Origin: an uncultured delta proteobacterium
Lineage (GTDB): Bacteria; Desulfobacterota; Desulfobacteria; Desulfobacterales; JAFDCJ01
Assembly (NCBI GenBank): GCA_963769935.1
Contig: CAVYNY010000010.1
Location: forward strand, 761,487 to 825,486
Direction of reading: 5' to 3'
DNA length: 64,000 bases
Shown: piece after piece, positions 39,707 to 63,836 of the stretch
How positions within the stretch are numbered: the stretch's first letter is position 1
Layout of the letters: the number at the start of each line of letters is the position of its first letter
Notes under the pieces: model-generated
The model's input: the letters and a program-made list of their open reading frames with translations, nothing else
What the model was told of the DNA's origin: nothing
Databases searched by the model: none
Position numbers and translations under genes: made by a program

Positions 39707-39898
39707 ATGAAAGTACGCATCAATGGTCAATGTATGGGCGACCGCAACTGCAACAAGCTTTGTCCGGAGGTTTTCGAATACGACGAAGACCAGCTGCTGT
39801 CCATCGTCAAATTTGACGAAATCCCGGAGAAGTACCACGATCTGGTCCGTCAGGCAGCCGCCGAGTGCGTGCCGGTGGCCATCGAAATCGAAGAGTGA
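39707..39898 (+). CDS. Monocluster ferredoxin
   Basis: CMGDRNCNKLCPEVF ... AAAECVPVAI; RBS AGGAGG. Confidence 0.85.
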   Translation: MKVRINGQCMGDRNCNKLCPEVFEYDEDQLLSIVKFDEIPEKYHDLVRQAAAECVPVAIEIEE

Positions 39899-39906
39899 GC
39901 CCTAGG

Positions 39907-40803
39907 GTGGAAAATTTGAATCATCTCACACAATTTTTACCATCTCTTTTGGTTCTCTTCGTATATGGCCTGTTCTATTTGACGGCAAAGGTATTGGTTG
40001 CCCGCAACAAGCTTAAAAAAAGAGAATCCCCTTTTCCAGGAAATTTTCTGAGAATCCCCGGGGAGCGATTCCGAAGCCGTTTACAGAGCGTCAATGCTGA
40101 TATCAACGTCTATTTATTCTCTGCCTTTCTTGCACCGCTGATTATTTACTCGGGCCTTATTACGCAGGCCTATTTCGGCAACAATACACCTTCAGTGGCG
40201 TTCATTCTGATGACAATCTTACCGGCGGCAGTTTTGGAAGCGCATTTCATCTTTAAACTGGTAAAGTTAATCAACAGGCGCCGCAAACTCAGGCTTGGTT
40301 ATGAAGGCCAACTTGCCGTCGGTCAGGAGTTGAACCAGCTGCTGCGGTATGGATATTATGTCTATCACGATTTTCCGGCGGATAAATTCAACATCGACCA
40401 CATTGTCGTGGGGCCGGCAGGGGTGTATGCGGTTGCGACCAAAGCCTGGCAAACGGCGAAAACCGGCAACGGGCAATCCGATGGCAAAGTCATTTACGAC
40501 GGCCAAAAGCTGCATTTCCCCGACTGGACGGAGACAAAGCCGCTTAAGCAGGCCCGCAGGCGAGCCCAGTGGCTTTCAAAATGGCTCAGTTCGGCGGTCG
40601 GCGATTACATTCACGTTCAACCGGTTGTAGCTTTGCCGGGATGGTTTGTTGACCGTATGTCGGCCAACAGTTTGCCGGTAATCAATCCCAGAGAGGCTCG
40701 ATCCATTCTGAATTCAAATCAGGGCAGCGTCCTGGATGAAAAAATGGTGTCCCGAATTGTCCACCAGATCGATCAGCGCTGCCGCGATGTACATTGCAAG
40801 TGA
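39907..40803 (+). CDS. Membrane-anchored NERD nuclease-domain protein
   Basis: N-terminal TMs, then LGYEGQ..VG..L, VYHD, NIDHIVVGPAGVYAVATK. Confidence 0.85.
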   Translation: MENLNHLTQFLPSLLVLFVYGLFYLTAKVLVARNKLKKRESPFPGNFLRIPGERFRSRLQSVNADINVYLFSAFLAPLIIYSGLITQAYFGNNTPSVAFILMTILPAAVLEAHFIFKLVKLINRRRKLRLGYEGQLAVGQELNQLLRYGYYVYHDFPADKFNIDHIVVGPAGVYAVATKAWQTAKTGNGQSDGKVIYDGQKLHFPDWTETKPLKQARRRAQWLSKWLSSAVGDYIHVQPVVALPGWFVDRMSANSLPVINPREARSILNSNQGSVLDEKMVSRIVHQIDQRCRDVHCK

Positions 40804-45054: not shown

Positions 45055-45590
45055 AACCAAACAAGTAGCTGAGTGAATGAGCAGCGGCTAACTCATTTGT
45101 TGTAATTAAAGACACATGGCTTGGCTTCCGGCTCAGGCGGCCCAACAAAATCAACAACTCCGGGGGTCAATGTAGAAATAGAACGGATGTCCCCATTGTT
45201 CATGGATCGCCGCGCACGCTAAAACGGCAGGCCTCACGATAGTAACCAACAACCAGCGGGAGCTTCAACGCGTACCAGGGTTGAGGGTCCGGAATTGGGT
45301 TGGCAGACAAGGTTCCGGAAACAATGACGAAACCTTTAAAACTGTCAACCTGTCGCCGGGCGGAATCCATTAATTGGAATGCGCGATCGATCTTGGTCTT
45401 TTATTCGATACCAAGGAAGAAAGTGCCCGGGGTCTTAAAATTGACTCAAAAATTCTGCAACACCAAAGGCGCGCGATCGGCTTTCAGAAAAGTGCCTGGA
45501 AAAGTTTGCGGTCTGAAACCGAAAGTTGCCGATACCGGAGGCTATGAGGTTTAGATTACATCACAATTTTATCTTAAACTAGGTTAGGCT

Positions 45591-55866: not shown

Positions 55867-56121
55867 ATGAGAGCACGTGTAATTAAAATTGGTAATTCGC
55901 AAGGGTTGCGTATTCCGAAGCCAATTCTTGAGCAAACAGGCATTATGGATGATGTTGAAATAGAGGTGGGAAAAAATAAAATCATTATCCGGCCGATAAA
56001 AAATGCCCGGGAAGGATGGGATGATGCCTTCAAGATAATGGGAAAAAAGGGTGATGACAAACCTATTATCGATGATGAAAACCTCACACATTCATGGGAT
56101 GAAGAAGAATGGCGGTGGTAG
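55867..56121 (+). CDS. mazE: AbrB/MazE antitoxin
   Basis: MRARVIKIGNSQGLRIPKPIL ... acidic WDEEEW tail; RBS GAGGAGG. Confidence 0.9.
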   Translation: MRARVIKIGNSQGLRIPKPILEQTGIMDDVEIEVGKNKIIIRPIKNAREGWDDAFKIMGKKGDDKPIIDDENLTHSWDEEEWRW

Positions 56122-56438
56122 TGAAGCGTTTTGACGTTTACGTGGTGAATCTTGATCCGACTGTTGGGTCTGAAATTAAAAAAACCAGACCGTGCTTGAT
56201 TATCTCACCTGATGAAATGAATCGTCACATTCGAACCGTAATCATTGCACCGATGACTTCGGCCAATAAAGACTATCCCACCCGTGTATCCTGTACATTT
56301 AGAAAGAAACAAGGCCAAATCGTATTGGATCAGATACGAACAATAGATAAGATTCGGCTCATTAAGAAGCTCGCCACAATTGATTCAAAGGAACAATTGG
56401 AAGTTATTTCAGTCTTGCAGCAGATGTTTGCATTTTAG
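56109..56438 (+). CDS. mazF: PemK/MazF endoribonuclease toxin
   Basis: VNLDPTVGSEIKKTRPCLIISP, DQIRTIDK.RL. Confidence 0.92.
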   Translation: MAVVVKRFDVYVVNLDPTVGSEIKKTRPCLIISPDEMNRHIRTVIIAPMTSANKDYPTRVSCTFRKKQGQIVLDQIRTIDKIRLIKKLATIDSKEQLEVISVLQQMFAF

Positions 56439-56544: not shown

Positions 56545-58618
56545 TTACGGCTCATCGTCAAAAAGTTTGAGCTGATGATCGTCGATATCTTTTTTATTAT
56601 TGTCGCGGGCGGACTTTTTCGCCCGGGGTTTTGAGCTCCGCGGTTTTGTATCGGCAGCCGGCTGCACTGGCCGAGAAAAATTTATTTGGTTTTGATCCTG
56701 CTGGTTTTCCAAGCTATCGAGAATAGAGCCGGGAACCACAAATCCTTCCTCGGTTTCATAAAAACGAAACATGCCGGCAATTTTCGCTGAGCTGTATTCG
56801 GGATCGCCCAGAAATAGGTTGGCAGATTTTTGAATCATCCCGGCTTTGCTGCTGACGGTGGAGTTTTTCGTTCCAAAGAAAGCGTTCAGTTCGTCGGCCG
56901 TGATGTAAACTTCGTTCTCCGGATCAAACAAAAAATTCAGCCTTGCAATCATACATATAATAGCCGCGGCCCAGATTTCGGCCCGACCCCGCTGGATAGA
57001 AAGCTTGCGCATCCTGCCGAGTTTATCGCACAGCTTAAGAGCCAGACCGGTGTATTCCGGATCCAGTCTGGCGCGGCCAAATGCCTCAATTTTATCTTTG
57101 ATCTCGGCGACGCGATCCTCCTTGCGGCCGGCGCCGGCTCCGGCCCGGGCGGTCCTGGGTGATTCCAGCTTATCGAGCCCTAACCGGCGGCGGACACCTG
57201 CTATGGCAGCCGCTTCGGCTTCGCGCATGGGTACATCTGCAGCCGCAGGATGCATCTCTGCATCAACCAGAAGGGCTTCGACGCTCTCCCTGCCGTCCGG
57301 GGTCTTGACGGCCTGACGGGGCGTCAGCTGACCCAGGGCGGGTATTTTCATATCCACCCAATTTTCCCAGTGGGCAAGCATAGCCTTTTCGATCTGCTCC
57401 CGAACTTCCGGGATCTGCATCAGATCATTCTGCTCCGGATCCGGCGCGGCCATCTCGCCTCCTCGTTCCCGCATCTTTTCCAGCATGGCGTCGGGCGACT
57501 GGATTTCAGTTGTGATATAGCGGGCGTGTCTGCCAAGGCACGTCTTAATTTCTCTACGAATGGTTTCCGCGCGGCGGGCCGAATTGACCTCTATCTTCAG
57601 GCGCCGGTCTTCGATCATGAGCCTGCCGAGGATTATGTTTTCCAGCGCTGGCGTCATGTTTTGACCTTTTCGGCTCCAGGGAATCTCGGCCCGGATAACC
57701 CGCCCGGATTCATCCAGCTCGGCGGACTCCATCAGCTCCGCCTCACTGGTTGTTGCCGACAAATCTTTCAGCTTCTCAAAGACCAACCCGGGTGCATCGA
57801 TTTCATAGTGGATTGTGTGGAACCTCAGCGGGTCACCGTCGGTGTTTTGCAGCGCAGGCGGCTCCAACAGTGCTGAATAAATATTAAAATAAAGCTCCCG
57901 AATCTCGAGATCATGGTCGTACAATGTATCGAAGTCGATCGAATCGCCGGCATCCATCAGCCATTGCCGAAATCGGATCAACTCGGGCTTCATTTTCGGC
58001 GGTATCAGAATGGTTCCGCAGCCGATCAGCATGGCCACGGTATCGATTTGAACCACCCGCCCGAACAGGATCTGTCCCGGGCGGGCATTTTCAGATCCCT
58101 TTTTTCTCAATCACGTTGCTGACCGTGCCGCAGAAAATGTCCTTCAGACGATAGCCTTCTCCCGGACGGACCTCCTGGATTTCATAAAATCTGTAGGGCT
58201 GACGGACCGTGGCTTCGATGATCTGCGCCTCGAGGTGATTCAGCCGGTTTTTCCTATCGGCTGCGTATAATTCCGCAATCGTCATATCTTCAGGTCCGTT
58301 CAGCTGCGGGAGATCCGGATCAGGTTCATATTCCCAGTTAAATATGAACCAGGGATAAAAGAGAGGCTCGTGGTCAGCCAGATTTTCATCGGACAGGCCT
58401 TCATCCGGCCAACCCATAAATTCATCCAGCGCGAAACCCAGGGCATTCTCCCCAAATACCTTGTACCCGTGTTCCATCAAGCAAGGCACCAGCCGGTCGT
58501 ACGCCTCCCCCAGGCGCCGGTATAAAAGGTCTGAAGACACTTTTTCCTTATTTAGACAGCACTTTTTGTATTTTTTGCCGCTGCCGCACGGGCACGGTTT
58601 ATTGCGTCCGACCTTCAT
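56545..58618 (-). CDS. SEC-C motif protein with MbcA/ParS-like and C-terminal DUF6398-like domains, 1-nt frameshift near 58100
   Basis: GRNKPCPCGSGKKYKKCC; WVDMKIPALGQLTPRQA; EIWAAAII..IARLNFLFD; ORFs 58091-58765 and 56545-58110 overlap at an A6G3 run. Confidence 0.8.
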
Positions 58619-58906
58619 GGTCTGCCTCGAATGATTATGTCGATTGTCATTTGATGCCTGTAAATGCCCCTTTGTCAAGAAGAGGGAAACATTCCAGCCC
58701 GCGAATGTCAAGGATCTATTTTGCCACCCTTTTTTACCGCATTCATGGTCATCCGTCAGGACCATGAAATCGAGGTCGCGCTAATCAAAACCCAGCAGTT
58801 CAACCCCTGACAAATTCAACAGCAACAGCCGGCGGTTATTCACCTGCACGCCCCCTGAACCGGAATAAAATTACTTTCCATTTGAAAAAGAACTAATTAA
58901 CTGCGG

Positions 58907-58984
58907 TTGCGGAGTTATGGGGTTATTGAGCTGAAGGCTGTGGAATTCAAGGCTGAGTTTGCAGGTAAGATGAATTTTTACCTG
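58907..58984 (+). pseudogene. YhcG/DUF1016 PD-(D/E)xK nuclease fragment
   Basis: LRSYGVIELKAVEFKAEFAGKMNFYL. Confidence 0.75.
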
Positions 58985-59085
58985 CGCGATAAGCCACCGC
59001 GCGCCGGTAGCGCGCAGCGTTCGAATCTATACCCCCCCTCATTGATGATTGACACATTATACCTAATTGGGATATTTTTTATACC

Positions 59086-59261
59086 ATGGATTTCGAATTT
59101 GACCCTGTAAAATCAGATACCAATAAAAACAAGCATGGGATTGATTCCATGGATGCTCAAGCGCTTTGGAATGATCCCGACTTATTGGAGATTCCTGCGA
59201 ATATGACCGATGAACCAAGATTTCTTGTTGTAGGGAAAATAGGTGAAAAACATTGGTCAGG
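59086..59261 (+). pseudogene. BrnT-family toxin, 3'-truncated, no BrnA antitoxin
   Basis: MDFEFDPVKSDTNKNKHGID...DEPRFLVVGKIGEKHWSG, then unrelated sequence; the RIISVR end is missing. Confidence 0.75.
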
Positions 59262-59379
59262 ATGCAATGCAATCAGAAATATAGTGATGTCCTCTTCCCG
59301 CAGAGTCATCACCGACCCTGACGGCAAGAAAAAGATAATACGAACAAGTCATTTTCATTGTGAGATACGGAGAAGTGAT

Positions 59380-59554
59380 GCTTTCGTTTAACAACAACGG
59401 ACAACTAACAATCAGCCATTGACGGCGGAGCCCAAAAAAATCGGCTATATAAAGGAAGGCAGGGCCAAGTATGGCAAGCGTAGCCGGAAAAATTGAAACG
59501 TTAAGGGAAATCTTTGGGTGCTGAACGTAATAAGATCGGAGGTAGTCAACTCAG
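59380..59554 (+). repeat. ORF6N-derived spacer unit, copy 1
   Basis: The first 68 bp are identical to 61297-61364. Encodes LTAEPKKIGYIKEGRAKYGKRSRKN*, followed by a ~50-bp tail ending gtcaactcag. Confidence 0.85.
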
Positions 59555-59583
59555 TCCCCTATTTTCCATGAACATACATTAGA

Positions 59584-60003
59584 TCATTGCGGCATTTTCA
59601 GAACAACGGAAGGAAAGTAAGTATGGAACCGGCCTCGGTCTCCGGTGGCGAGTTTCCAGCCCATGATTTCGGCATGGGCGCCGATAAAAAAGTCGGGAAG
59701 CGGCATAACGGGAACCGGTGCATCGGTCTGAGATGTCCGCCGCCTCCGATACTTGCGGTATGCCGCGGCACAGCCGTCTGCCACTGCGGCGGGCACATCG
59801 AGAATCTCGACGCCCCAGCTGCGTATCCGGTCTGCAGCAGTTGAAGGATCTGCATCCCCGACACAAATCTCGGCCAGGCTGACCGCGTTGATGGCGGCGC
59901 CCTCACCGGCTATAGCATCGGCGATCGTCTCTTTGGCCCATTGGCAGAAAGGCGAGTCGCGATCGAAAGCGTAGACGAGTACGTTGGTGTCCAGAAGGAT
60001 CAT
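59584..60003 (-). CDS. vapC: PIN-domain (VapC) toxin
   Basis: ILLDTNVL, SLAEI, LPDFFIGAHA, LATGD. Confidence 0.9.
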   Translation of the reverse strand: MILLDTNVLVYAFDRDSPFCQWAKETIADAIAGEGAAINAVSLAEICVGDADPSTAADRIRSWGVEILDVPAAVADGCAAAYRKYRRRRTSQTDAPVPVMPLPDFFIGAHAEIMGWKLATGDRGRFHTYFPSVVLKMPQ

Positions 60004-60233
60004 GGCTCACGGGTCAGATCGCGGAGTTTTTCCCATGTCATCGTCAGTCGCAAAGGGGCCTTGCGCATGGCTTCCATACAAGCCTTCTTGCTCATGTGCT
60101 CGCTGCGTTCAGGCTTCTCAAGTCGAATCAGTAGAAAGCGCCCTTCCGCCTGCTGCTGAATGTCGAAGACATCCCCTGGTCGTCCGCCAGGCAGGAGGAT
60201 CCTCTTTTTGGTATCGACGGTGTATGTGCTCAT
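60000..60233 (-). CDS. AbrB-like antitoxin (VapB partner)
   Basis: MSTYTVDTKKRILLP..PGDVF; 4-nt overlap with vapC; C-terminal WEKLRDLTREP. Confidence 0.75.
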   Translation of the reverse strand: MSTYTVDTKKRILLPGGRPGDVFDIQQQAEGRFLLIRLEKPERSEHMSKKACMEAMRKAPLRLTMTWEKLRDLTREP

Positions 60234-60234
60234 A

Positions 60235-60268
60235 GTGGGAATATCCCACACTGTTGATTCATTGTCAA
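60235..60268 (-). promoter_or_regulatory. vapBC promoter/operator
   Basis: TTGACA-17-GATATT; near-perfect palindrome gtgggaatatcccac; ATG 6 nt after the -10. Confidence 0.6.
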
Positions 60269-60281
60269 TAGATCATATTAT

Positions 60282-60378
60282 GTTAGGAATATCGACCTTT
60301 TTCCACATGATTTTATGTTTCAACTGACTGATGAGAGTACCGGTCTTTAAGGCGCCAATTTGGCACCTTAAAGCGATG
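60282..60378 (+). pseudogene. ORF6N-domain fragment
   Basis: VRNIDLFPHDFMFQLTDE / EYRSLRRQFGTLKR*. Confidence 0.8.
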
Positions 60379-60569
60379 AAGGGCTCATGGGGGTCGGCAA
60401 AAATTATGAGGTCCTGGTTTCAAAACGAGTCCGAACCGAACAGAATTTTCTTGGCCACATCCTAACGCTGATAGATCGACCTATTTTTAAACCTGCCAAG
60501 CAAACATATTGGCCGGATAAAGCGAATTTAGAATGGCATCGCACGAAAAAATTTGGCTTGAGAGCTTAG
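60375..60569 (+). pseudogene. C-terminal fragment of an HNH-type putative restriction endonuclease
   Basis: DEGLMGVGKNYEVLVS...WPDKANLEWHR; the N-terminus and HNH core are missing. Confidence 0.6.
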
Positions 60570-60581
60570 TCAATTGATACC

Positions 60582-61154
60582 ATGTCGGACTACTACCAGC
60601 AAAATTTTAGAACCTATCATGAAAAAACATTTTTCGTGGATTCGGCCAGGTTTTTAACGCCTTTTGCTGAAAACCTGAAACCCGGAGCAACGATCCTTGA
60701 TATCGGATGTGGCTCCGGCCGGGACTTGCTCTGGTTAAAAAAGCGCGGCTTCAAAGTCATCGGATTTGAGAAGTCCCCAGGGCTGGCCGGTCTTGCCAGA
60801 AGAAACGCGGGCTGTGAAATTATTGAAGGCGATTTTGAAATCTTCGACTTTTCCGAAATACGGACAGATGCGATTCTATTTTCTGGATCACTGGTTCATA
60901 TTGAGCACGACAGGCTTTCGAACCTGATAAAAAAAATTGCAAATCAGACACATGCCTCGGTAATATACCTTTCGCTTAAAGAGGGAGCCGGAGCTAAATC
61001 GGCTGCGGATGGCCGAACATTTTATCTGTGGGATGATAAGGCGTTAAAACAGCTGTTTAGAGGGCTTGGATTTAAAGTTATTGATTCATCAAAAAGTGTC
61101 TCGATAGTTAATCCAAAAGATATCTGGCTGGGGTATGTGCTGGATAATTTTTAG
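60582..61154 (+). CDS. Class I SAM-dependent methyltransferase
   Basis: ILDIGCGSGRD, SLVH, YLSLKEG..DGRTF. Confidence 0.9.
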   Translation: MSDYYQQNFRTYHEKTFFVDSARFLTPFAENLKPGATILDIGCGSGRDLLWLKKRGFKVIGFEKSPGLAGLARRNAGCEIIEGDFEIFDFSEIRTDAILFSGSLVHIEHDRLSNLIKKIANQTHASVIYLSLKEGAGAKSAADGRTFYLWDDKALKQLFRGLGFKVIDSSKSVSIVNPKDIWLGYVLDNF

Positions 61155-61175
61155 CATCCATTGGATAAGAATGAT

Positions 61176-61472
61176 GATGATTTCATGTTTGAACCAAAAA
61201 GGAACACGATTCTTTAAGATCACAAATTGGGATCTTAAAAAGGGGGCATCATTCGAAATATCCTCCGTTCGCCTTCACTGAGCAAGGCGAAGTGAGGCTT
61301 TCGTTTAACAACAACGGACAACTAACAATCAGCCATTGACGGCGGAGCCCAAAAAAATCGGCTACCTAAAAGAAGGCCAAACCAAATACGGCATGCGTAG
61401 TCGTAAAAATTGAAAAAAACAAAGGGAAGCTTTGGAGGCTGGATGTAATGAGGTCAACGTTAGTCAACTCAG
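61176..61472 (+). repeat. ORF6N fragment plus spacer unit, copy 2
   Basis: DDFMFE / KEHDSLRSQIGILKRGHHSKYPPFAFTEQG, followed by the unit shared with 59380-59554. Confidence 0.85.
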
Positions 61473-61518
61473 CAACGACATCCCCGAATTTCTCTAATTG
61501 TTAATTGACGGAGGCAAT

Positions 61519-62661
61519 ATGGGTGCCATTAAAGGACCCCAAAAGGCAAAAGTGTTTATTTCATCACTCAATTCGTACAAACTTCCGAGCGGAAAGACGC
61601 TGTCAGAGGTGCGCCGAAAACTGGCTGTGCAAATCGAGACGCAATTTCCTTTTCTGTCCGCAGAGATCAATGAAGATTGGTCCGCAATGGGTGCGGCAGA
61701 TCCACGACGGACGACACAAGTCAAATCCCGGCAATGTCACCTTTTTATTGGCATTCTGGTGGATGATTACGGGTTTATCGAGAATACCGGACTATCGGCC
61801 ACACAAATTGAGTTCGATGCCGCTATTGAAGACAGCCGTGAAAAAATGCTCGTCTTCATGCAAAAAAACTTGCAAGATCCAATAGTATTGTCGAGACAGC
61901 CTGAACCCTACCAGCAACTGATTTCATCGCTTAAGGATTATCGCGGAGGTAAAATCGTCAATTGGTTTGATTCTGAAGAAGAATTGGTAACTCTGGTACT
62001 TGATTCCGTTGAACTATTCTGTGCGCAAACCCTGAGGGCCATTCGCCAATTTCCTGCCTATGCAAGCGACAAAACCCGCAGGGAAACAGAATGGGAATTG
62101 ATGACGTTCACAGAACGCCATGAAGCAATGATGGCAACATTTCGCACGGAGGCTGAAAAAATCAAGCTGATGGATACACGAATACTGGGAATGATTTTTA
62201 AGGCAGTCAACCAGCCTGCAGACCAATATTCGCTGCGCATTCGATCAAACAAAAAATCGATATATATCCCGGTCCTTTTCAGTGCCTGCCCGGATAGATT
62301 TTCTTATTCCGACGCTGCCCGCTATGTGGGGTATCCTTTCCGCAGCTGCGTCGAAAACTGGAAACTGGCTTACGGCCCGCTCCACATTGTTGCAGTAGCC
62401 AGATCTATCACGGACACCCAGGTCCGCCGCCATCTTGGGAACCCCGACATACATGTTTCCAGGGAAGCATGGGGCTTTTTCGCGGCTGACCCGGAACGTT
62501 TTATTCAGGTGGGATATCTAACGCAGTGTCTAAGTCCGCCACGGCTCATCAGGCGAGTACGTGAGTTCTTTACGTGGCTGGACTTTTACGAGCAAATTGA
62601 CCAACTCATTCAACGCGCAAAGGTTCGGGGAAAAATTTTAAAGGCCAGACCTGCTCAGTAA
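61519..62661 (+). CDS. DUF4062 (TIR/NDT-like) domain protein with uncharacterised C-terminal domain
   Basis: KVFISS...LSEVRR, CHLFIGILVDDYG, GLSATQIEFDAA; RBS GGAGG before ATG 61519. Confidence 0.8.
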   Translation: MGAIKGPQKAKVFISSLNSYKLPSGKTLSEVRRKLAVQIETQFPFLSAEINEDWSAMGAADPRRTTQVKSRQCHLFIGILVDDYGFIENTGLSATQIEFDAAIEDSREKMLVFMQKNLQDPIVLSRQPEPYQQLISSLKDYRGGKIVNWFDSEEELVTLVLDSVELFCAQTLRAIRQFPAYASDKTRRETEWELMTFTERHEAMMATFRTEAEKIKLMDTRILGMIFKAVNQPADQYSLRIRSNKKSIYIPVLFSACPDRFSYSDAARYVGYPFRSCVENWKLAYGPLHIVAVARSITDTQVRRHLGNPDIHVSREAWGFFAADPERFIQVGYLTQCLSPPRLIRRVREFFTWLDFYEQIDQLIQRAKVRGKILKARPAQ

Positions 62662-62671
62662 AATCAGTAAA

Positions 62672-62722
62672 AAGGGTAACTTTGGAGGCTGAATGAAATA
62701 AGATCGGAGTTAGCCAACTCAG
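62672..62722 (+). repeat. Spacer tail, copy 3
   Basis: aagggtaactttggaggctgaatgaaataagatcggagttagccaactcag matches the tails at ~59503-59554 and ~61422-61472. Confidence 0.8.
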
Positions 62723-62756
62723 TCAAGACCGAGTTTCCCATTCTTAAAAATTTCCC

Positions 62757-62785
62757 TTGCGCAATTCGCGATTCGCGAATAGAAT
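62757..62785 (+). promoter_or_regulatory. Promoter with palindromic operator, probably leaderless
   Basis: TTGCGC-17-TAGAAT; the spacer contains ttcgcga-t-tcgcgaa; ATG 6 nt downstream. Confidence 0.65.
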
Positions 62786-62791
62786 AAGGCC

Positions 62792-63298
62792 ATGATACTA
62801 AAACCGCAAGATATCTTTATTATGTTAAAGCTGGTAGTCTGGAATCGCTCTGAGTGGTCTTATCCGGCTTTATCACATGAGCTGTCTATGAGTGCCTCGG
62901 AAGTGCATGCCGGCGTCAAGCGAGCAGCTGCTGCAAGACTAATGGACCTGGACCGAAAAATACCCATTAAGAGCAGCCTGCTCGAATTCTTAATACACGG
63001 TGTTAAATATGCCTACCCTCCCGATCGCGGTGGAATTACTCGGGGAATGCCAACGGGTTATGCTGCTCAGCCTCTAAGAGATCTTATCATGCAGCCCGAC
63101 GAGCCGCCGCCGGTCTGGCCCGACCCGGAAGGACAGGTGCGCGGCTATGAATTCTCCCCTCTATACAGCTCGGTTCCCCATGCCTGCAAGGTCGATCCAA
63201 AACTCTATGAATTGCTGGCGCTCGTAGATGCCATCCGTGATGGAAGGGCTCGTGAAAGAAAAATTGCTGTAGAAGAAGTTCAATCAAGAATTTCGTAG
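62792..63298 (+). CDS. HTH-containing putative antitoxin (AbiEi-like partner of a nucleotidyltransferase-like gene)
   Basis: MILKPQDI..LKL, HTH-like WSYPALSHELSMSASEV, EFLIHGVKY, RGMPT, LYELLALVDAIRDGRARE. Confidence 0.65.
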   Translation: MILKPQDIFIMLKLVVWNRSEWSYPALSHELSMSASEVHAGVKRAAAARLMDLDRKIPIKSSLLEFLIHGVKYAYPPDRGGITRGMPTGYAAQPLRDLIMQPDEPPPVWPDPEGQVRGYEFSPLYSSVPHACKVDPKLYELLALVDAIRDGRARERKIAVEEVQSRIS

Positions 63299-63307
63299 CA
63301 TAAAAAA

Positions 63308-63623
63308 ATGAAACAACACTCGATATTTTTTGGGGACGAAGCTCGACGCATTCTTCGGTCGCGGAAGAGGGGATTATCTCGCAAGCCATGATATGGAGGA
63401 CATTATCAACTTCATTAACGGACGAGCCGAGGTAATAGAGGATATCAAAAACTCAGAACCGGATTTAAAAGATTTTATCGTTAAATCATTACAGGGGTTT
63501 TTGGAGGACGAGTTCTTTCTGGAGGCCTTGCCGGGCCATCTACTGCCTGATCAGGCAAGCCAGGGGCGGCGATCTATCATCCTGGAGAGAATTAAAAAAA
63601 TTATTGAACTTGGCAGCGGTTAA
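63308..63623 (+). pseudogene. N-terminally deleted nucleotidyltransferase-like (AbiEii-like) partner
   Basis: YFLGTKLDAFFGRGRGDYLASHDMEDII resembles the C-terminal helical part only; the ATG at 63308 is out of frame. Confidence 0.55.
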
Positions 63624-63836
63624 AAAAGGATACGAGCTCAGGGAACGAAAGAGTTTCCTATATAGTGAAAGCGGAATTTTTTGTCTTTTCAGTGAGATCG
63701 TGAAAGGTTTAGGGTTATATGGCAAGAGGAGGATCAGAATTCAGAGGGATTTCTTAAAGTTGTTATTTTGATGCCAAAAACATTGATTTAAGCCGAAATA
63801 AGAGGCGTCTTTAAAGCTCATTTTTATTAATTACAG

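Follow-up and report, generated by a model that had tools for sequence, protein, structure and literature searches.

Ends of a TIRtron-type Y1 element in a defence and toxin–antitoxin gene array of an uncultured delta proteobacterium

The window analysed here is a stretch of 64,000 nucleotides (nt) at the end of contig C10 (CAVYNY010000010.1) of an uncultured delta proteobacterium, whose assembled genome is 8.0 Mb long and 96.7% complete. Close to the contig end it carries an array of toxin–antitoxin (TA) and defence genes, interspersed with related units made of ORF6N gene remnants and of a recurrent "tail". We lean to the view that this array is a defence/TA hotspot that was cut and rejoined at the ends of TIRtrons, elements with terminal inverted repeats (TIRs) and a Y1/HUH transposase called TIRYT (TnpA-Y1 subclass 2.1.2), ORF6N being likely a passenger of these ends. 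As a hotspot, the array is rather ordinary and decayed.

The tail occurs three times in the window (starting at 59488, 61406 and 62656), as a previous sequence-only reading of this DNA had described, and twice more on contig C12. A tail-specific profile recovers these five copies from the own genome at E 1e-13 to 4e-11, all five being its training set, and nothing further below E 0.18. A profile of the same five tails additionally caught a dispersed 35-nt motif, for which 18 matches in the own genome exceed the best shuffled score (9 are the seeds, and 9 lie on C12). Reversed, this motif forms the left end of a Y1 transposase on C13 that has an internal deletion; in this cognate TIRtron copy (C13:332150–332870, L029) the deletion is in frame and takes away the catalytic region. 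Of 151 genomes of the order, 81 contain homologs. The congener G011 holds an intact gene of 322 amino acids (aa) with the motif at both ends (L039; PF01797, E 2e-11), an arrangement seen in L037–L040. Its product has a catalytic YIHLNP-type motif, in agreement with the Y---NP required of Y1 HUH enzymes, and a C-terminal DnaA_C/helix-turn-helix (HTH)-like domain given by weak Pfam Bac_DnaA_C/HTH matches (E 0.003–0.009, below the cut-off). The TIR reads GGGGACGT and fits at 6 of 8 positions the published GGGGWSAS, a motif of most but not all TIRtron members (PMC3733652).

A profile built from 75 foreign TIR copies only gives exactly three matches at E ≤ 5 in the window, and these are the three tails (9.9–13.2 bits, the best of 20 shuffled windows scoring 8.5). 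Each tail is thus a linker, here called 'a', followed by a degenerate TIRtron TIR and read from the inside of the element outward. Individually the tails are weak TIR matches, two of them with internal losses. Their 3' end, the TIR, is dispersed through the genome and the genus: 15 of the 23 genus genomes contain the TIR pattern, in up to 36 copies. The earlier suspicions that the tail is the mechanistically relevant part and that a Y1 transposase is involved were well placed; this 3' end belongs to a described element family. The units and tails of the array are the following.

59369..59496, + strand: unit 1, deleted ORF6N (a few codons ahead of the junction, then heptamer run, aa 159–178 and stop); repeat and homolog mapping
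59380..59447, + strand: 68-bp tract identical to 61297–61364, the following 108 columns only 72% alike; alignment
59497..59543, + strand: linker 'a', five copies in the own genome; tail profile and pattern search
59544..59567, + strand: tail 1, a degenerate TIRtron TIR that lacks 9 nt, followed by 8 nt of outer flank, inside to outside; 11.0 bits
60285..60376, + strand: ORF6N middle remnant, aa 49–79, without tail; homolog mapping
61175..61413, + strand: unit 2, ORF6N aa 56–99, heptamer run in place of aa 100–158, aa 159–178, stop; homolog mapping
61414..61461, + strand: linker 'a'; tail profile
61462..61493, + strand: tail 2, best-kept TIR plus outer flank; 13.2 bits, E 0.007
62662..62738, + strand: linker 'a', tail 3 (degenerate TIR 62712–62730) and outer flank; 9.9 bits

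A few other forms were met. G011 has a complete gene-less mini-TIRtron, with two perfect TIRs around about 85 nt (L121, G011:C352:983–1114), and C9 and C15 carry two intact TIRYT genes of a sister type, whose TIRs differ. A two-ended miniature inverted-repeat transposable element made of linker plus TIR was plausible by eye but had no significant inverted partner: none of the candidate ends within 130 nt of any window tail was significant (p 0.3–0.75), and the array holds no left end. A fourth tail at about 63630–63657 was rejected, the TIR profile missing it and the stretch being common to G022. The search for the linker in 300 genomes, with at most two candidates scored per genome, gave seven weak partial matches; two metagenome matches to it were judged chance. 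Rfam had no match in the window or in C12:1–20000.

Foreign DNA starts about 8–10 nt outside these ends. We counted a TIR copy as informative when its outer flank matches other sequence from an offset of 4–60 nt. Fifteen of the 61 copies of a first set were informative, and six of these start at +8 to +10, while control anchors do so in 2 of 37 cases (p 0.005). For a second set (39 new stretches, 41 usable copies, one self-duplicate set aside) the interval +8 to +10 was fixed beforehand; half of the informative copies (4/8) fall in it, against 7 of 82 controls (p 0.007), and all eight offsets—4, 7, 8, 9, 9, 10, 11 and 12—lie inside +4 to +12. The outer flank is conserved over about 7 nt and random beyond. 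Tandem stutters, in which the sequence restarts from an upstream position, are found at +7 to +13 in 10 of 78 foreign ends, whereas shifted anchors show them in 8 of 815 cases and inner edges in 2 of 78; in L170, for example, 66 bp of interior plus TIR are duplicated. On the inner side the sequence travels with the end: homology runs up to the TIR, the subject nearly always has a TIR too, and units of interior plus TIR are common to different species.

Within the window, the homology to the PDC-M21 block begins at 62739, 9 nt outside tail 3. This joint cuts inside a gene, complete in the relative G022 (281 aa), of which the window retains the final 16 codons. A larger island on C12 (C12:5000–55200; L001, L066, L067) carries 13 TIR copies spread between TA-like and other accessory genes, in co-oriented blocks of 3 forward and 10 reverse, and one of its ends meets, at +10, the middle of a HigA-like gene; the window tails are co-oriented as well (3/3). 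In the corresponding locus of the congener (L089, L093) the SEC-C/DUF6398 gene is 87% and the PDC-M21 pair 91–95% alike. Between these anchors it has other genes, as well as ORF6N remnants with the same heptamer junction, and no tail; G002 and G018 have a TIR beside the same anchor gene with other cargo. Cargo does vary between relatives, a point that the sequence-only reading had singled out for checking.

The remnants of ORF6N were mapped on an intact 178-aa homolog from G020 (L070; PF10543, E 3e-34). The fragments noticed near 60282 and 61176 are real: they lie at 60285–60376 and 61175–61303, the latter covering aa 56–99 (89% nt identity over 61175–61287), and aa 159–178 are found at 59434–59493 and again at 61351–61410. 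Between them aa 100–158 (59 codons) are replaced by a short CAAC-rich heptamer run, of a family common in the own genome, and the deleted unit was indeed copied after its formation. CAAC-rich tandem repeats of 7 and 9 nt abound in intergenic DNA genome-wide, e.g. at C16:193100 and C22:627898, and in G022 a 33-nt hairpin-type insert, CCCCG...GGGG, interrupts the ORF6N remnant precisely where the deletion junction lies (L093:4080–4115). The deletion/heptamer junction occurs in another species, where there is no tail; a scan for this junction returned two matches, one dismissed as chance in a coding region. It looks like the deletion predates these species or moved between them. Since the junction is shared with a tail-less relative, and since G020 has an intact ORF6N about 45 nt inside a sister-type TIR end, ORF6N looks like a passenger, likely placed just inside one TIR end; a HigA-like gene of G022 is positioned likewise inside the end of a TIRYT remnant.

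The proposal that ORF6N remnants act as anchors is not supported, given this shared junction and remnant ends that fall at scattered codons. In its explicit form, an integrase or homologous recombination would target the 3' end of ORF6N and leave displaced fragments between modules, as at tRNA genes. G022 does have ORF6N remnants at the same SEC-C gene with different cargo. However, the remnants derive from differing alleles and cover differing codon ranges, the own genome has no intact ORF6N left, no integrase lies near the array, and tail 3 and one C12 tail stand without ORF6N, all of which makes this explanation very unlikely.

If the array was rejoined at TIRtron ends, the TIRYT enzyme would nick single-stranded DNA 8–10 nt outside GTCCCC and join the end to another site, a single-strand chemistry that we borrow from the families IS200/IS605 and RAYT. 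An outward joint would remove the intervening DNA, as at tail 3; an inward one would duplicate a segment and the TIR in head-to-tail order, so that each of the resulting co-oriented ends caps passenger DNA. Microhomology deletions and, likely, gene conversion would afterwards wear the array down. The longest identical tract, the 68 bp already noticed as shared by two units (59380–59447 and 61297–61364), is part of a 130-nt repeat of 89% identity; the next 108 columns are 72% alike between the copies, and G022 is 83% alike there, which suggests that the tract results from a later conversion. Because the cognate transposase of the assembly is internally deleted, the array is probably an inactive fossil, except if the sister enzymes of C9 or C15 act in trans.

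The cargo comprises seven broken pieces (YhcG, brnT, three ORF6N, HNH and PDC-M21B) against five intact genes. The families read from the sequence alone were right, Pfam recognizing BrnT, PIN, methyltransferase and DUF4062, and PADLOC the HNH remnant and the HTH/nucleotidyltransferase (NTase) pair, which is PDC-M21A/B. Besides the units and tails, the following features were mapped.

58910..58987, + strand: YhcG (DUF1016) C-terminal remnant at the left array edge; PF06250 E 3e-5, PADLOC PDC-S02
58991..63643, no strand: block missing from one population allele; run X3, single 482-nt contig
59086..59391, + strand: brnT-like open reading frame, its 3' end running into unit 1, no brnA after it; PF04365
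59584..60003, - strand: vapC (PIN toxin), intact; PF01850
60000..60233, - strand: likely vapB antitoxin, overlapping the vapC start; by position only
60377..60569, + strand: HNH endonuclease C-terminal remnant; PADLOC HNH E 0.001
60582..61154, + strand: class I S-adenosylmethionine (SAM) methyltransferase, intact; Pfam and homolog comparison
61519..62661, + strand: DUF4062 gene, intact, closely bracketed by tails 2 and 3; Pfam
62739..62787, + strand: final 16 codons of the 281-aa gene complete in G022; joint 9 nt beyond the TIR
62792..63298, + strand: PDC-M21A (HTH), intact; PADLOC E 2e-42
63308..63623, + strand: PDC-M21B (NTase-like) pseudogene, about 390 nt deleted internally, G022 version 235 aa; PADLOC and relative

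The putative vapB has no family match, its antitoxin assignment being positional. Four of the six plasmid homologs of the brnT-like frame, among the matches listed, align over residues 1–73/76. The HNH piece adjoins the methyltransferase in 2 of 11 foreign loci. Homologs of the DUF4062 gene were found neither in 22 congeners nor in viral contigs, with two distant plasmid matches. The hotspot reaches leftward past the interval first flagged: a mazEF pair (55868–56438) lies directly left of the SEC-C/DUF6398 gene (56545–58765). The latter is split at 58097 by an extra base missing in two read sets, likely an assembly error; in G022 this gene is one frame of 707 aa. Elsewhere in the window, 39865–40803 is a paralog of a 312-aa gene, and 45320–45518 holds two remnants of the 281-aa gene, both genes belonging to the island version of G022.

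C10 terminates 0.4 kb past the array. The region was compared with the contigs of eight public runs from three studies; its listed holders included no RNA data set. The best holders, contigs from two studies, cover it at about 99% identity; one bridges unit 2 with its unique flanks, and others stop 30 nt into the 68-bp tract, as expected of a two-copy repeat, so that the repeat is present in the DNA. That the repeats come from mis-assembly, which the contig-end position of the array and the homopolymer frameshift at 58097, absent from two read sets, might have suggested, is largely refuted and appears extremely improbable: independent read sets of the two studies reproduce both the array and its repeat structure, which settles the earlier worry about an artefact, and outside the tract the copies are 28% different. 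The deletion allele of run X3 (4.65 kb) joins 58990 to 63644, with 2 nt fitting either side, away from the tails. One contig of run X4 connects 61296 back to 59380, with 68 nt fitting both sides. This joint fits equally well with circularisation, with tandem duplication or with a chimeric assembly, the run being without cover left of unit 1. Run X9 carries a diverged piece of ORF6N end plus linker.

Several points weigh against rejoining at TIRtron ends. Of the three window tails, only tail 3 allows its outer joint to be mapped; for tails 1 and 2 the search gave no close homologs of vapC or DUF4062 that could serve this purpose. No TIR precedes the left edges of units 1 and 2. Linker 'a' matches neither the gene end nor the promoter end of intact TIRYT elements, and linker plus TIR is present in 1 of 401 genomes, the pattern being found in none of the other 400, only 12 of which are congeners. 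Tail 3 and one C12 tail have an identical internal TIR loss, so that an already degenerate end was copied. As for the outer joints, the p value of the first set belongs to an interval picked after seeing that set, the second set comes mostly from one genome (G018) with two copies representing one tandem event, and BLAST end-trimming pushes controls toward low offsets; the conserved outer flank could be a target preference instead of a part of the end. Stutters were seen in only 1 of 22 own-genome copies, the GC skew was too weak to assign an orientation in a replication-strand test of the ends, and literature searches found no biochemistry of TIRYT.

Two other histories must be weighed. The Y1 transposase might run an integron-like cassette system, linker plus TIR serving as a reusable attachment site and modules being excised as circles and stacked in one orientation. 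This would suit the start of linker plus TIR at no more than about 10 nt from the stop codons of ORF6N, DUF4062 and C12:9832–10416, three genes without relation to one another, the tight bracketing of DUF4062 and of the C12 gene by two co-oriented ends each, the co-orientation of ends in blocks, the X4 joint and the cargo differing between relatives. We nevertheless hold it quite unlikely: broken pieces outnumber intact genes, the joint of tail 3 is inside a gene, the X3 deletion bypasses the tails, the X4 joint could equally be a short-word assembly chimera, and the tails are degenerate, with no module found behind the same tail in a second context. The gene cut at tail 3 and the deletion allele made without tails also speak against the non-integron cassette array of the sequence-only reading, which was right in seeing no integron. 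The assembly has no intact IntI (nothing passes the TIGR02249 cut-off, and other contigs hold only fragments), and no attC fold was found: the five tails, on both strands, fold with z of -1.1 to +0.8, and no conserved R boxes were visible by eye. Broken fragments like an integron integrase occur at C13:559634–560334, C16:348155, C17:217862 and C20:456416, none over the family cut-off. Passive decay would instead make the TIR the relic of one old insertion, the tails being multiplied by local duplication and homologous recombination while the transposase no longer acts. The copying of already degenerate TIRs, the conversion-like 68-bp tract, the microhomology at the remaining breaks and a cognate transposase deprived of its catalytic region all agree with it. 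However, it leaves unexplained the tail 3 joint at +9, an offset as in other genomes, and the linker plus TIR behind three different genes, and we judge it unlikely.

The element class is already known (Di Nocera et al. 2013, PMC3733652), and corresponds to TnpA-Y1 subclass 2.1.2 or RAYT group 1 (Quentin et al. 2018, PMC6006769; Bertels et al. 2017, PMC5581495). Our elements share with TIRtrons the Y1 HUH gene, the C-terminal DnaA_C/HTH-like domain, TIRs beginning with GGGG, and solo TIRs forming moderately abundant, clustered repeat families; the TIR type departs from the published motif. The accessible text of these three descriptions gives no cut site, no pattern of outer joints or stutters and no link to defence islands, and that of PMC6006769, where subclass 2.1 is the second largest Y1 transposase group, in about 15% of strains, assigns it no substrate or cut site. 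The literature searched holds no account of ORF6N arrays or of fixed end joints of TIRYT, although figures or supplements of PMC3733652 may list this TIR. A case close to ours is the tnpA-REP of the same subclass 2.1 among prochlorosin genes, with fragments in variable clusters and a proposed diversifying recombination (Laurenceau et al., 10.1101/2020.03.09.984088); there, however, the cargo is one gene family, and in the part available its authors call causality unresolved. The CAAC-rich bridge of ORF6N resembles a short run of the intergenic heptamer repeats of TAACTGA type (PMC4679880), but here it replaces 59 codons of a gene. Like IS608 and ISDra2 of the IS200/IS605 family, the elements would rely on a Y1 transposase acting on single-stranded DNA. 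Non-autonomous ends persist in that family too; its ends are subterminal hairpins, whereas the tails are TIRs that fold no better than shuffles. With integron arrays they have in common co-oriented spacers between TA and defence genes, but not an attC-like fold, conserved R boxes or an intact IntI, and the mapped joint lies inside a gene.

On a broader scale, it is a tentative and rather doubtful idea that TIRYT is a gene-shuffling engine of defence islands, an HUH counterpart of the integron, with the array and the C12 island as its products. By rejoining a fixed point 8–10 nt outside its TIR, it would cut out and duplicate passenger genes and stack them head to tail. The fixed outer joint and the stutters predict where the nick would lie. 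If true, islands could have their TA and anti-phage genes trimmed and rearranged at TIRtron ends without an integrase.

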